Shown: positions 55,478-61,510, counted from the first letter of the stretch. The stretch: DNA of 64,000 nt from Escherichia coli (GCF_003018255.1 NZ_CP027440.1), one strand, 5' to 3'. The notes: a model not told the origin generated them from the letters alone. A program made the numbers and translations.

Positions 55478-56933
55478 ATGAGCGGAAAACCAGCGGCGCG
55501 TCAGGGAGATATGACTCAGTATGGCGGTCCCATTGTCCAGGGTTCGGCAGGTGTAAGAATTGGCGCGCCCACCGGCGTGGCGTGCTCGGTGTGTCCGGGC
55601 GGGATGACCTCGGGCAACCCGGTAAATCCGCTGCTGGGGGCGAAGGTGCTGCCCGGCGAGACGGACCTTGCGCTGCCCGGCCCGCTGCCGTTCATTCTCT
55701 CCCGCACCTACAGCAGCTACCGGACGAAGACGCCTGCGCCGGTGGGGATTTTTGGCCCCGGCTGGAAAGCGCCTTCTGATATCCGCTTACAGATACGCGA
55801 TGATGTACTGGTACTCAACGACAACGGCGGACGGAGCATTCACTTTGAGCCGCTGCTGCCGGGTGAGGCGGTGTACAGCCGCAGCGAGTCCCTGTGGCTG
55901 GTGCGTGGCGGTAAGGCAACGCAGCCGGACGGCCACACGCTGGCACGGCTGTGGGCGTCGCTGCCGCCGGATATCCGGTTAAGCCCGCATCTTTACCTGG
56001 CGACCAGCAGCGCACAGGGGCCGTGGTGGATACTGGGGTGGTCTGAGCGGGTGCCGGGTGCTGAGGACGTACTGCCAGCGCCGCTGCCGCCGTACCGGAT
56101 GCTTACCGGGCTGGCGGACCGCTTCGGGCAGACGCTGACGTACCGGCGTGAGGCCGCCGGTGACCTGGCCGGGGAAATCACCGGCGTGACGGACGGTGCC
56201 GGGCGGGAGTTCCGTCTGGTGCTGACCACGCAGGCGCAGCGGGCGGAAGAGGCCCGTAAACAGCACACCGCTTCCTTATTTTCCCCTGACACCCCCCGCC
56301 CTCTTTCAGACTCTGCGTTCCCCGACACACTGCCCGGTACGGAATACGGCCCCGACAGGGGCATCCGTCTTTCGGCGGTGTGGCTGATGCACGACCCGGC
56401 ATACCCGGAAAGCCTGCCCGGTGCGCCACTGGCGCGGTACACGTATACGGAAGCCGGTGAACTGCTGGCGGTATATGACCGCAGCAATACGCAGGTGCGC
56501 GCTTTCACGTATGACGCGCAGCACCCGGGCCGGATGGTGGGGCACCGTTATGCGGGAAGGCCGGAGATGCGCTACCGCTACGACGATGCGGGGCGGGTGG
56601 TGGAGCAGCTGAACCCGACAGGCCTGAGTTACCGCTACCAGTATGAGCAGGACCGCATCACCATCACGGACAGCCTGAACCGGCGAGAGGTGCTGCATAC
56701 AGAAGGCGGGGCCGGGCTGAAGCGGGTGGTGAAAAAAGAACTGGCGGACGGCAGCGTCACGCACAGCGGGTATGACGCGGCAGGAAGGCTCACGGCACAG
56801 ACGGACGCGGCGGGACGGCGGACAGAGTACGGCCTGAATGTGGTGTCCGGCGATATCACGGATATCACCACGCCGGACGGGCGGGAGACGAAATTTTACT
56901 ATAACGACGGGAACCAGTTAACGGCGGTGGTGT
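55478..56933 (+). pseudogene. rhsD: Rhs polymorphic toxin gene, 5' fragment (PAAR-like N-terminus + start of YD-repeat core), cut by IS
   Basis: MSGKPAARQGDMTQYGGPIVQGSAGVRIGAPTGVACSVCPGG...; YD repeats; frame runs 12 codons into the IS and stops at 56969-56971; locus between ybbP and selU = K-12 rhsD position. Confidence 0.9.
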
Positions 56934-56967
56934 CCTTGACCCACGATATTCAGACAGTCGTTGTATC

Positions 56968-57849
56968 TTAAGTTGACGTTACCCGCTGACGTCGATATTC
57001 CCTTGGTGAGAGATAACCTAACGCACTATGCGGATGGGTTTCATTGTAATGCTCGATCGCCACTGCAAGGTTATGCAATGCCGTTCTTACATTCGGTTTC
57101 GGCATGAACGCGATGTAGTCTTCTTTCATCGTTTTCACGAACCTTTCTGCCATTCCATTGCTCTGAGGGCTACTGACTGCCGTTGTGCAGGGCTCCAGAT
57201 TCAACTCTCTGGCGAACTGCCGTGTTTCATGAGCTGTATAAGCCGAACCGTTATCAGTCAGCCACTGGATTGGCCGTTCCGCTCCTTTATCGCCAAAGCG
57301 TTTTTCTATTGCTCCTAACATGACATCCTGCACCGTTGCTTTGTCATAACCTCCCGTGCTTGCGGCCCAGTCTATGGCTTCACGATCGCAACAGTCCAGT
57401 GCGAACGTGACACGCAGTTTTGCGCCATCATCACAACCGAACTCAAAGCCATCGGAACACCAGCGCTGGTCGCTTTCCTTCACCGATATTCGGCCTTTAT
57501 GTTCCCGCTGCGGCCGTGAAGGTTTGTCATGTAACAACAACAGGTTATTTTCGCTCATTATCCGATAAACGCGCTTTGCATTCACGAACGGCACTCCTTT
57601 GTTACGGGACTGTCGTCTGAGAATGGCCCAGACACGACGATAGCCATATGTCGGCATATCGCTGATGATATCAAGGATACGTGCTAACACTTCCGCATCC
57701 GCAGCCTCATCACATCTGCGACGACGTTTATTCGGCTTATTACCAGATGTTTTCATCCGTTGTGCCAGTTGCGCACGCGACACGCCCAGAATACGGCTTA
57801 CCAGGGTTATTCCTTGTCCGTTGGCAACAAGGGCGCATGCGCTATCCAT
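56968..57849 (-). CDS. IS2-group transposase OrfB (DDE integrase core)
   Basis: 293-aa ORF; [25 protein letters not shown] (D,D,E); strong by-eye similarity to IS2 InsD. Confidence 0.9.
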
Positions 57850-58199
57850 TTTCGCGACTGACCATACTCCACCGCTTCTTTGAGGATCTCAACTTCCATG
57901 GTTTTCTTACCCAGCAAGCGCTGTAACTCTTTTATTTGTTTTATAGCGGCAGCCAGTTCTGAGGCAGGAACGACATCCTCTCCGGCAGCAACAGCAGTGA
58001 GACTTCCTTCCAGATATTGTTTTTTCCACTTAAACAACAGGCTGGGCTGAATACCATGCAAACGCGCCACATGGGACACCGTCATACCGGGTTCCATTGT
58101 CTGCTGAATAATGGCGATTTTTTCCTGAGGAGTTTTACGTTTACGAAGCTCCTGCCCCAGCAAAATTCCAGTCATCTCAAAATTAGCACTAGTAGACAT
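57807..58199 (-). CDS. IS2-group transposase OrfA (HTH)
   Basis: [38 protein letters not shown]...[19 protein letters not shown] resembles IS2 InsC; start uncertain (ATG 58199, 58175 or 58232); overlaps orfB by 43 nt in the -1 frame. Confidence 0.85.
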
Positions 58200-58263
58200 A
58201 TATCCAAGCCTATCTCTTATTTTAAGATACATCCACTGTCTGGCGTTTCAAGGGGCCGGTTCA

Positions 58264-61038
58264 CAGTTAACGGCGGTGGTGTACCCGGACGGGCTGGAGA
58301 GCAGCCGGGCATATGATGAGCTGGACAGACTGGTATCGGAGACATCGCGCAGCGGGGAGACAGTACGCTACCGCTACGATGACGTGCACAGTGAGTTACC
58401 GGCGACGACAACGGATGCGACGGGCAGCACCCGGCAGATGACCTGGAGCCGCTACGGGCAGTTGCTGGCCTTCACCGACTGCTCGGGCTACCAGACCCGC
58501 TATGAATACGACCACTTTGGTCAGATGACGGCGGTCCATCGTGAGGAAGGCATCAGCACGTACAATACCTATAACCCGCGCGGCCAGCTGGTCAGCCGGA
58601 AAGACGCACAGGGCCGTGAAACGCGGTATGAATACAACGCCGCAGGCGACCTGACTGCCGTTATCACCCCGGACGGCAACCGGAGCGAGACACAGTACGA
58701 TGCGTGGGGAAAGGCGGTCAGCACCACGCAGGGCGGGCTGACGCGCAGTATGGAGTACGATGCTGCCGGACGTGTCATCAGCCTGACCAACGAGAACGGC
58801 AGTCACAGCGACTTCAGCTACGATACGCTTGACCGGCTGGTACAGCAGCGCGGCTTTGACGGGCGGACGCAACGTTATCATTATGACCTGACCGGAAAAC
58901 TCACGCAGAGTGAAGATGAGGGGCTTGTCATCCTCTGGTACTACGATGAATCGGACCGTATCACTCACCGCACGGTGAACGGCGAACCGGCAGAGCAGTG
59001 GCAGTATGATGGCCACGGCTGGCTGAGAGAAATCAGCCACCTGAGCGAAGGCCACCGTGTTGCCGTCCACTATGGCTACGACGATAAGGGCCGTCTGACC
59101 GGGGAGCGCCAGACGGTGGAGAACCCGGAGACGGGGGAACTGCTGTGGCAGCATGAGACGAAACAGGCATACAACGAACAGGGGCTGGCAAACCGCGTCA
59201 CGCCGGACAGCCTGCCGCCGGTGGAGTGGCTGGCCTATGGCAGCGGTTATCTGGCGGGCATGAAGCTGGGCGGGACGCCGCTGCTGGAGTACACGCGCGA
59301 CCGCCTGCACCGGGAGACGGTGCGCAGCTTCGGCAGCATGGCAGGCAATACAGCCGCATATGAACTGACCAGCACTTACACCCCCGCAGGCCAGTTACAG
59401 AGCCGGCACCTGAACAGCCTGGTGTTTGATTGTGACTATAACTGGAATGACAACGGCGACCTGATGCGCATCAGCGGCCCGCGACAGACGCGGGAATACG
59501 GCTACAGCGCCACGGGCAGGCTGGAGAGCGTGCGCACCCTCGCACCGGACCTGGACATCCGCATCCCGTATGCCACCGACCCGGCGGGCAACCGGCTGCC
59601 GGACCCGGAGCTGCACCCGGACAGTACACTCACAGTGTGGCCGGATAACCGAATCACCGAAGACGCGCACTACCTGTACCGTTACGATGAATACGGCAGG
59701 CTGGCGGAGAAGACGGACCGCATCCCGGCGGGTGTGATACGGACGGACGACGAGCGGACCCACCACTACCACTACGACAGCCAGCACCGCCTGGTGTTCT
59801 ATACGCGGATACAGCATGGCGAGCCACTGGTCGAGAGCCGCTACCTTTACGACCCGCTGGGCCGCCGGACGGGTAAACGGGTGTGGCGTCGCGGGCGTGA
59901 CCTGACAGGATGGATGTCGCTGTCGCGTAAACCGGAGGAGACGTGGTACGGGTGGGACGGCGACAGGCTGACGACGGTGCAGACTGACAGCACGCGTATC
60001 CAGACGGTGTACCAGCCGGGAAGCTTCACACCGCTCATCCGCATCGAAACAGACGTGACCGAACTGGAGAAAGCGCAGCGGCGGAGCCTGGCGGAGAAGC
60101 TCCAGCAGGAAGGGAGCGAGGACGGACACGGCGTGGTGTTCCCGGCTGAACTGGTGCGGCTGCTGGACAGGCTGGAGGAAGAAATCCGGACAGACCGCGT
60201 GAGCAGTGAAAGCCGGGCGTGGCTTGCGCAGTGCGGGCTGACGGTGGAGCAACTGGAAAAACAGGTGGAGCCGGAATATACACCGGCGCGAAAAGTTCAT
60301 CTTTACCACTGCGACCACCGGGGCCTGCCGCTGGCGCTTATCAGCGAAGACGGCAATACGGTGTGGAGCGCGGAGTATGATGAATGGGGAAACCTGCTTA
60401 ATGAGGAGAACCCGCATCATGTGTATCAGTCATACCGTCTGCCGGGGCAGCAGCATGATGAGGAGTCGGGGCTGTACTACAACCGGAACCGGTACTACAA
60501 TCCGTTGCTGGGACGATATATTACTCAGGACCCGATTGGGCTGGCGGGGGGATGGAGTCTGTATGCGTATCCGCTGAATCCGGTGAATGGTATTGATCCA
60601 TTAGGATTAAGTCCTGCAGATGTAGCGTTAATGCGAAAAAAAGAACAATTAAACCATCAAAGAGCATGGGATATATTATCTGATACTTATGATGATATGA
60701 AGAGATTAAATTTAGGTGGGACTGATCAATTTTTCCATTGTATGGCATTTTGTCGAGTGTCTAAATTAAATGACGCTGGTGTTAGCCGATCAGCGAAAGG
60801 GCTGGGTTATGAAAAAGAGATTAGAGATTACGGGTTAAATATGTTCGGTATGTACGGCAGAAAAGTAAAGTTATCCCATTCTGAGATGATTGAAGATAAT
60901 AAAAAAGACTTGGCTGTAAATGAACATGGGTTGACATGTCCATTAACACAAGATTGCTCAAATAGATGTATTGATTATATTAATCCAGAGCATAAAAAAA
61001 CGATAAAGGCTTTACAAGATGCTGGCTATCTCAAGTAA
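58264..61038 (+). pseudogene. rhsD: Rhs polymorphic toxin gene, 3' fragment (YD-repeat core + C-terminal toxin tip)
   Basis: Frame [23 protein letters not shown]... continues the 5' fragment exactly; YD repeats throughout; core ends [27 protein letters not shown] (to 60609). Confidence 0.9.
60610..61035 (+). other. Rhs C-terminal variable toxin domain (142 aa), AT-rich
   Basis: Begins right after the PxxxxDPxGL core-terminating motif; composition switches abruptly from GC-rich core to AT-rich tip; five Cys; by-eye serum-amyloid-A-like motifs (see findings). Confidence 0.7.
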
Positions 61039-61510
61039 CATCTCAAAGATGGTAATATTTATTTTTGCTATTATAATCGTTGTTTTTTTATGCGTGACTA
61101 CTTATCTTTATTTACACAAAGATGAATCTCTTGTAAGTAAGCATTACATAAACTATATGGCAATACCAGAAAGTGATGGGGTTTTTACATGGCTCCCAGA
61201 TTTTTTTCCGCACGTAGCGGTGGATATATCAATATCCACAAATGTAGAAGATGATTATTTTTTTTCTTATTTTTCCCTAACAATCGATGATGGGGGGAGG
61301 TTTAAGAAAACATTGACTGTGAGGGCCAGGGAACAAGTGGCGAAAATCGTATCAGAGAATGATCCAGATACAAAAAAAGTGTGGTGTAAATATGGTAAAA
61401 TACCAGGGCAAGGGGATAGCGTAAACCTTTTTTTTGTTGGTGAAATTAATGTTACGCATTATTTTATAACAAATATTGGAGCTGGGTTACCTGATGCTTG
61501 TGCAGAGTAA
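61019..61510 (+). CDS. Candidate Rhs immunity protein with N-terminal TM anchor
   Basis: 163-aa AT-rich ORF overlapping the toxin 3' end by 20 nt; hydrophobic helix [22 protein letters not shown]; position typical of rhsI genes. Confidence 0.65.

Follow-up and report, generated by a model that had tools for sequence, protein, structure and literature searches.

An IS2-subgroup insertion sequence in an Escherichia coli rhs gene and its 16-bp target duplication, very probably the usual footprint of an ISEc48-related lineage

The stretch of DNA analyzed here (the window) comprises 64,000 nucleotides of Escherichia coli (GCF_003018255.1, NZ_CP027440.1) and carries an rhs gene that is interrupted by an insertion sequence (IS) of the IS2 group. 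A direct repeat of up to 19 bp flanks the IS, which raises the question of whether so long a repeat is an accident of this one insertion or the way in which this element ordinarily inserts. According to the ISfinder data compiled by Kojima in 2023, members of the IS407 subgroup of the IS3 family duplicate 4 bp of target, those of the IS2 subgroup 5 bp, and the other members 3 bp (PMC10045372). Against the short duplications of IS2 and its relatives, the first-pass annotation of the window had judged so long a repeat atypical and had named as possible explanations an odd staggered cut, an insertion completed by repair synthesis, or recombination of two differently placed insertions in rhs paralogues. 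We found instead that this IS routinely inserts in the way seen in rhs. Very probably, an ISEc48-related IS of the IS2 subgroup entered an intact Rhs gene at the rhsD locus, and a stagger of 15-16 bp is a fixed property of its lineage.

How long is the repeat? The 19-mer CAGTTAACGGCGGTGGTGT occurs exactly at 56915-56933 and again at 58264-58282, as the first-pass annotation had reported, with no further match in the window at up to two mismatches. The number expected from 100 shuffles of the sequence was 0. Both copies encode QLTAVV in the rhs frame, as had also been noted, which we derived by frame arithmetic along a continuous open reading frame (ORF). We compared the window IS with eight further copies, and all of them start with TGTCCTTGACC and finish with GGCCGGTTCA; the TGT at 56931-56933 is therefore the terminus of the IS. 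In unoccupied rhs alleles the sequence is GGAAC-CAGTTAACGGCGGTGG-TGT-ACCCGG, with TGT following CAGTTAACGGCGGTGG, which assigns the TGT at 58280-58282 to the target. The apparent 19 bp are thus a 16-bp duplication, CAGTTAACGGCGGTGG at 56915-56930 and 58264-58279, extended by a 3-bp coincidence of the target with the tip of the IS. The earlier suggestion that the TGT of the left copy doubles as the IS end and leaves at least 16 bp of true duplication is in this way narrowed to exactly 16 bp. A comparable 3-bp coincidence is found at 2 of the 26 other sites described below (L098 and L015). The parts of the repeat are the following.

56915-56930, plus strand: left copy of the target site duplication (TSD), CAGTTAACGGCGGTGG, the final 16 bp of the upstream rhs fragment (repeat search, IS copies, empty alleles).
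58264-58279, plus strand: right copy of the TSD, 16 bp (repeat search, empty alleles).
58280-58282, plus strand: target TGT, within rhs codons, matching the first three bases of the IS by coincidence (IS copies, empty alleles).

Other insertions of the same lineage leave the same footprint. All eight other copies of this IS, which show 99.5-99.7% identity and lie in unrelated E. coli chromosomes and plasmids, are abutted at their termini by perfect repeats of 15-16 bp, and their targets are all different and unrelated in sequence. ISEc48 shows 15-16 bp at six of six independent sites. The ISEcl1-like and Sodalis relatives (1336 bp, 72-80% identity in the transposase OrfB), hosted by Yersinia, Atlantibacter, Citrobacter, Scandinavium, Klebsiella, Pantoea stewartii and Candidatus Sodalis endolongispinus, show 14-16 bp in 13 copies and 4-6 bp in none, the remainder being without a repeat. 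We pooled 27 intact sites, composed of the window site (56914/58280) and loci L001-L008, L093-L098 and L011-L048. The duplication measures 15 bp at 18 of them and 16 bp at 9, and among these sites there is neither a class of about 25 bp nor a mixture of classes within one element.

As a control, we applied the same script to IS2 and its nearer relatives from Klebsiella, Aeromonas, Lonsdalea, Superficieibacter, Scandinavium and Enterobacter, whose OrfB is 62-65% identical to that of the window IS. Exactly 5 bp are duplicated in 13 of these 17 copies, and the other four have no repeat. This agrees with the roughly 5 bp that the first-pass annotation gave for IS2 and its relatives, and with the 5 bp published for IS2 (PMC3299598).

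These counts bear directly on the explanation by a one-off aberrant insertion, in which an IS that normally duplicates about 5 bp would have left a longer repeat through an odd staggered cut or extended repair synthesis. The 5-bp duplication of IS2 itself (PMC3299598) and the reviews that list 5 bp for the IS2 subgroup speak for it. We nevertheless consider it highly improbable, because long repeats accompany every other copy of the window IS and every ISEc48 site and recur in the ISEcl1-like relatives, while 4-6 bp occur in no copy of the lineage. The first-pass annotation had itself proposed that long duplications at other copies would make the repeat a normal property of the element, and this is what the other copies show.

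Was the repeat already present in rhs before the IS arrived? The IS splits the gene into two parts.

55478-56930, plus strand: 5' part of the Rhs core gene, lying downstream of ybbP at the rhsD locus and encoding DUF6531 and RHS repeats.
58280-61038, plus strand: 3' part of the Rhs gene, with RHS repeats, the RHS core and the C-terminal tip.

The ORF of the 5' part reads into the IS and stops at 56971, and deletion of the IS together with one repeat restores a single ORF of 1403 codons. Pfam recognizes DUF6531, RHS_repeat and RHS in the gene, orthologues are annotated as 'RHS element core protein' or rhsD, and the flanking ybbA-ybbP region identifies the window as E. coli and the gene as that of the rhsD locus. 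When reconstructed with one 16-mer, the empty site aligns unbroken and at full length (100%) with RHS core genes of 3641 E. coli genomes. The flank of strain JNE23-011 is 100% identical, and its Rhs orthologue carries no insertion; on it, both flanks of the window overlap by exactly the 19-mer, which unoccupied alleles carry once. Because the uninterrupted allele has no natural tandem, the repeat was generated by the IS; the possibility of a tandem 19-mer in such an allele, raised in the first-pass annotation, can be put aside.

For the same reason, there is next to no chance that the repeat belonged to the tandem or YD-repeat periodicity of rhs and that the IS landed between two existing copies. 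Rhs genes are indeed internally repetitive, and weaker imperfect repeats are seen (D3, third copy 86%), but the single 19-mer of the unoccupied alleles and the unbroken alignment of the empty site speak against a pre-existing repeat.

The empty site also bears on homologous recombination between two copies of the IS, inserted 16 bp apart in rhs paralogues, which would yield a hybrid IS between ends that look like a long repeat. E. coli does possess several rhs paralogues (a median of 3 matching places per genome), IS-IS recombination is common, and many Sodalis copies are without repeats. However, one uninterrupted orthologous allele is collinear with the flanks on both sides, the ORF is restored exactly, the length of the repeat is the standard footprint of the lineage, and the window IS lies at or near this site in none of 5426 other genomes. 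We therefore give recombination a very slim probability. The occupied site as such was found in 0 of 5426 complete E. coli genomes, and a search for exact matches to the truncated, chimeric Rhs ORF gave no other record. The insertion appears to be private to this strain and is probably recent.

What kind of element, then, produces this footprint? The IS occupies the minus strand and has the following features.

56931-58263, minus strand: IS of 1333 bp, IS3 family, IS2 subgroup, with ends 5'-TG...CA-3' (ORFs, NCBIfam, end comparison).
56931-56971, minus strand: right inverted repeat (IRR), 41 nt, reading inward TGTCCTTGACCCACGATATTCAGACAGTCGTTGTATCTTAA, with CAGACA 20 nt from the tip as in the IRR of IS2.
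58222-58263, minus strand: left inverted repeat (IRL), 42 nt, reading inward TGAACCGGCCCCTTGAAACGCCAGACAGTGGATGTATCTTAA, with CAGACA 21 nt from the tip as in the IRL of IS2.
57807-58232, minus strand: orfA, longest ORF of 141 aa, with a start at about 58172 in the style of the Prokaryotic Genome Annotation Pipeline (PGAP); helix-turn-helix/leucine-zipper regulator, like TnpA of IS2.
56968-57849, minus strand: orfB, 293 aa, with the DDE catalytic domain, overlapping orfA.

The assignment to the IS2 group made in the first-pass annotation stands. OrfB passes the NCBIfam model transpos_IS3 (NF033516) with 211 bits against a cut-off of 160, and the best NCBIfam matches are IS2 TnpB (411 bits, cut-off 597) and IS2 TnpA (201 bits, cut-off 229), both under the IS2-specific cut-offs. 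The ends, TGTCC... and ...GGTTCA, match the IS3-family 5'-TG...CA-3'. The inverted repeats are imperfect and of IS2 type, in register with those of the IS2 copies L082-L089: they measure 41 and 42 nt, contain the GGCCCC and CCAGACA boxes, and the IRL is 1 nt longer than the IRR. Both orfA and orfB are open in the window copy, and PGAP annotates a programmed -1 frameshift in near-identical copies. The window IS differs from the common 1336-bp form in a single substitution and in the loss of 3 bp (IS positions 71-73), which keeps the reading frame. Its exact OrfB protein is present on 882 public contigs.

In its duplication, this IS departs from the groups to which it otherwise belongs. The 15-16 bp seen at all 27 intact sites lie outside the 3-5 bp of the IS3 family and differ from the 5 bp of the IS2 subgroup. 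By the convention of ISfinder, copies of the same element share more than 95% nucleotide identity. The window IS is not an isoform of ISEc48 by this measure, as the two share 88.4% nucleotide identity over 98% of the length and 88% identity in OrfB. Databases label it only as 'IS3 family transposase' (NCBIfam, cluster members and plasmid annotations), and ISEc48 is its nearest named relative.

ISEc48 itself (PGAP 'IS3-like element ISEc48 family transposase') is 1336 bp long and shares with the window IS the architecture of the ends and the length of the duplication, in addition to 88% identity at the nucleotide and the OrfB level; it differs in being a distinct IS at 88% and in the outer 20 nt of the inverted repeats (TGAGCTGG... 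versus TGAACCGG...). The ISEcl1-like elements have 77% OrfB identity, ends of the type TGATGTAGCCCC...GATCA and duplications of 15-16 bp. They are more distant, with about 78% nucleotide identity, and their assignment to ISEcl1 is by length and host only, ISEcl1 being listed as a 1336-bp element of the IS3 family (PMC5001619).

IS2 resembles the window IS in length (1331 bp, versus 1333 or 1336 bp), in the overlapping orfA and orfB with a frameshift, in the GGCCCC...CCAGACA core of the ends and in the 1-nt offset between IRL and IRR; by homology, the window IS would share its copy-out/paste-in transposition through a minicircle. The differences from IS2 lie in OrfB (62-63% identity), in the duplication (5 bp, versus 15-16 bp), in the IRL of IS2, which starts with TA whereas both ends of the window IS start with 5'-TG, in small indels of the linker before the catalytic core, and in the 9-residue C-terminal tail of IS2, which the window lineage lacks. 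OrfB identity is 77-99% inside the long-duplication group and 62-68% between this group and the 5-bp group. The transposases of the two groups differ by a two-residue insertion, by a +1/-2 indel in the linker preceding the catalytic core and by the absence of the IS2 tail, a short tail that is missing from the 5-bp elements of Aeromonas too.

Long duplications have been described in other families. IS481, IS1202 and IS481EU show discrete TSD classes, of about 5, 15 and 25 bp, spaced by about one helical turn through a mechanism reported as unknown (PMC10045372). The same study attributes these classes to helical periodicity and contrasts them with the IS3 family, whose duplications it calls 'relatively conserved'. 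The three groups are separate IS families, but they too use DDE transposases related to retroviral integrases and contain sub-lineages that differ by about 10 bp, as do IS2 and the window lineage. The window lineage acts like their class of about 15 bp, yet it is otherwise within the IS2 subgroup by every test. A coherent sub-lineage of the IS2 subgroup, composed of the window IS, ISEc48 and the ISEcl1-like and Sodalis elements, may have shifted its stagger from 5 to 15-16 bp and so provide the first case of 'quantised' TSD classes within the IS3 family, a proposal that we make tentatively and with slightly more doubt than belief. In the full-text literature, ISfinder entries aside, we found nothing on the flanking repeats of ISEc48, ISEcl1 or ISEc36, nor on 15-16 bp in the IS3 family; matches for a 15- or 16-bp direct repeat dealt with integrative and conjugative elements, genomic islands or IS1. 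The duplication habit of the lineage is about as likely as not to be catalogued already in ISfinder entries.

How could such a stagger arise? By homology with IS2 and IS911, transposition would follow the copy-out/paste-in route, in which cleavage of a minicircle junction is followed by a symmetric attack of both 3'-OH ends on the target. At the rhs site, strand transfer would have linked the two 3'-OH ends of the IS to target phosphates with a stagger of 16 bp, and repair of the gaps would then have duplicated these 16 bp. The stagger of the lineage exceeds the 5 bp of IS2 by approximately one turn of B-DNA, if the geometry of the helix is a guide. The simplest arrangement would be a transpososome whose active sites contact one and the same face of the target helix and lie one turn further apart, and a variability of 1 bp in either direction would fit a longer and less rigid span. 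The strong asymmetry of the ends of IS2, in which the IRL with its TA tip is inactive as a donor, may not apply to this lineage, as both of its ends start with TG.

Several observations weigh against a stagger that is a fixed property of the lineage. About half of the ISEcl1-like and Sodalis copies are without a flanking repeat, which we assume may reflect IS-IS recombination in degenerate genomes. The length is not strictly fixed, being either 15 or 16 bp, and coincidences of flanking bases blur the exact positions of the cuts by about 1 bp. The alignment of OrfB revealed only the small linker indels between the two groups, with no extra domain and no structural cause that we could see. Finally, the stagger of the lineage is deduced from genomic footprints.

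A different account of the long repeat accepts that it is common to the lineage, and would explain it by strand transfer through different subunits of a higher-order multimer or by a looped target, as speculated for IS481EU. Both options are named for the homologous class of about 15 bp (PMC10045372), the alternation between 15 and 16 bp hints at a geometry less rigid than the strict 5 bp of IS2, and the transposases of the two groups are told apart by no extra domain. We hold this account to be possible but rather unlikely. It refines the reading of a lineage-wide 15-16 bp stagger without contradicting it, and the present data do not separate the two.

The flanks of the 27 sites show a weak preference with two-fold symmetry, A-N15/16-T. 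The 5' base is A at 13 of them and the 3' base is T at 14, where about 25% would be expected; the A corresponds to the last base of the IS and the T to the first. This preference could reflect symmetric contacts or a target preference, or else a true stagger of up to 17 bp.

Do these elements form circles? Using a synthetic junction as query, we found no same-element IRR-IRL junction of the window IS in the 5426 E. coli genomes, the only match being a hybrid junction of IS2 and ISEc48. A pattern scan of metagenomes returned one ISEcl1-like IRR-G-IRL junction with a 1-bp spacer, on a contig that is probably chimeric (L104), along with nine chance matches. Three independent head-to-tail junctions join IS2 to its long-duplication relatives, with 1-2 bp between the abutted ends. 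They read ISEc48 IRR-AT-IS2 IRL, ISEcl1-like IRR-C-IS2 IRL and IS2 IRR-C-ISEc48 IRL, and the corresponding loci are L090 (NZ_CP122860, E. coli plasmid), L091 (CP041936, Klebsiella pneumoniae plasmid) and L101:1690-1730 (NZ_CP042878, E. coli chromosome). Many IncFIB plasmids carry the Klebsiella arrangement at an identical coordinate. The resemblance to minicircle junctions of IS2, with their spacer of 1-2 bp, suggests that these elements insert precisely beside each other's inverted repeats. The ISEc48, Klebsiella and Enterobacter plasmid copies at L090-L092 are uninformative on duplication length: IS2 abuts the right end in L090 and L091, and L092 is without a flanking repeat.

The consequences of the insertion at this locus are modest, as it represents an ordinary IS knockout of an Rhs toxin gene. 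Of wider relevance is that tools and curators who expect at most 5 bp for the IS3 family would mis-call the boundaries of ISEc48, ISEcl1-like elements and the window IS, or miss their footprints, and these elements are common on virulence and resistance plasmids of Enterobacterales. If the stagger is indeed a lineage property, the long-duplication and 5-bp groups, at 62-68% OrfB identity and with small linker indels, form a minimal pair for the determinants of target-cut spacing in transposases of the retroviral-integrase type. Two groups of related transposases one helical turn apart would offer a tractable system for the study of how DDE transpososomes measure target DNA, a question that is termed unresolved for the IS481 and IS1202 classes (Kojima 2023, PMC10045372).

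The long repeat may also matter for the stability of such knockouts. Slippage between flanking repeats is an accepted route of precise excision, which should improve with repeat length. With 16-bp instead of 5-bp repeats, precise excision should be likelier, as the first-pass annotation had reasonably suggested for a long repeat, and knockouts caused by this lineage may plausibly be more reversible.

The survey of copies yielded further observations on the elements themselves. Two distinct in-frame deletions of 3 bp give rise to 1333-bp variants of the IS, one at 71-73 in the window copy, within the leader or N-terminal extension of orfA, and one at 725-727 in L007 and L008, within orfB. We considered H59 and H60 (2673 bp, with two transposases) as head-to-tail tandems and rejected this, as they represent an IS2 nested inside a copy of this IS. 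In L099 (NZ_CP027586, E. coli 2012EL-2448; also H60, NZ_CP027340), a copy of the window IS is split by IS2 near its left end, at about position 1271 in the orientation of the window. The nested IS2 shows a short duplication, and the composite has no outer flanking repeat.

Candidatus Sodalis endolongispinus (NZ_JAFJYC01) has undergone a massive expansion of ISEcl1-like elements, which account for more than 40 of the best 80 loci (L027-L062, L067, L076 and L080). Most of these copies are slightly shortened (1317-1330 bp) and without a flanking repeat, in line with decay and IS-IS recombination, and the few with repeats have 14-16 bp. Draft assemblies often hold contigs that consist of the IS only, with a length of exactly 1331-1337 bp, as collapsed repeats (L010, L012, L013, L018, L019, L063, L068 and L081). 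Such contigs give no information on the flanks and would mask the footprints in surveys of draft genomes.

Around the interrupted gene, a downstream ORF of 163 aa at 61019-61510 belongs to the YbbD family and has no Pfam match. The rhs gene is 98.1-98.8% identical to its orthologue in near-identical strains, as compared to 100% for the adjoining ybbP flank (window 55478-61510 versus L100, NZ_AP045067, and L009, NZ_CP116067), and in DETEC-S792 and JNE23-011 the best match to the rhs gene sits at another rhs locus. This pattern of divergence suggests recombination among rhs paralogues.

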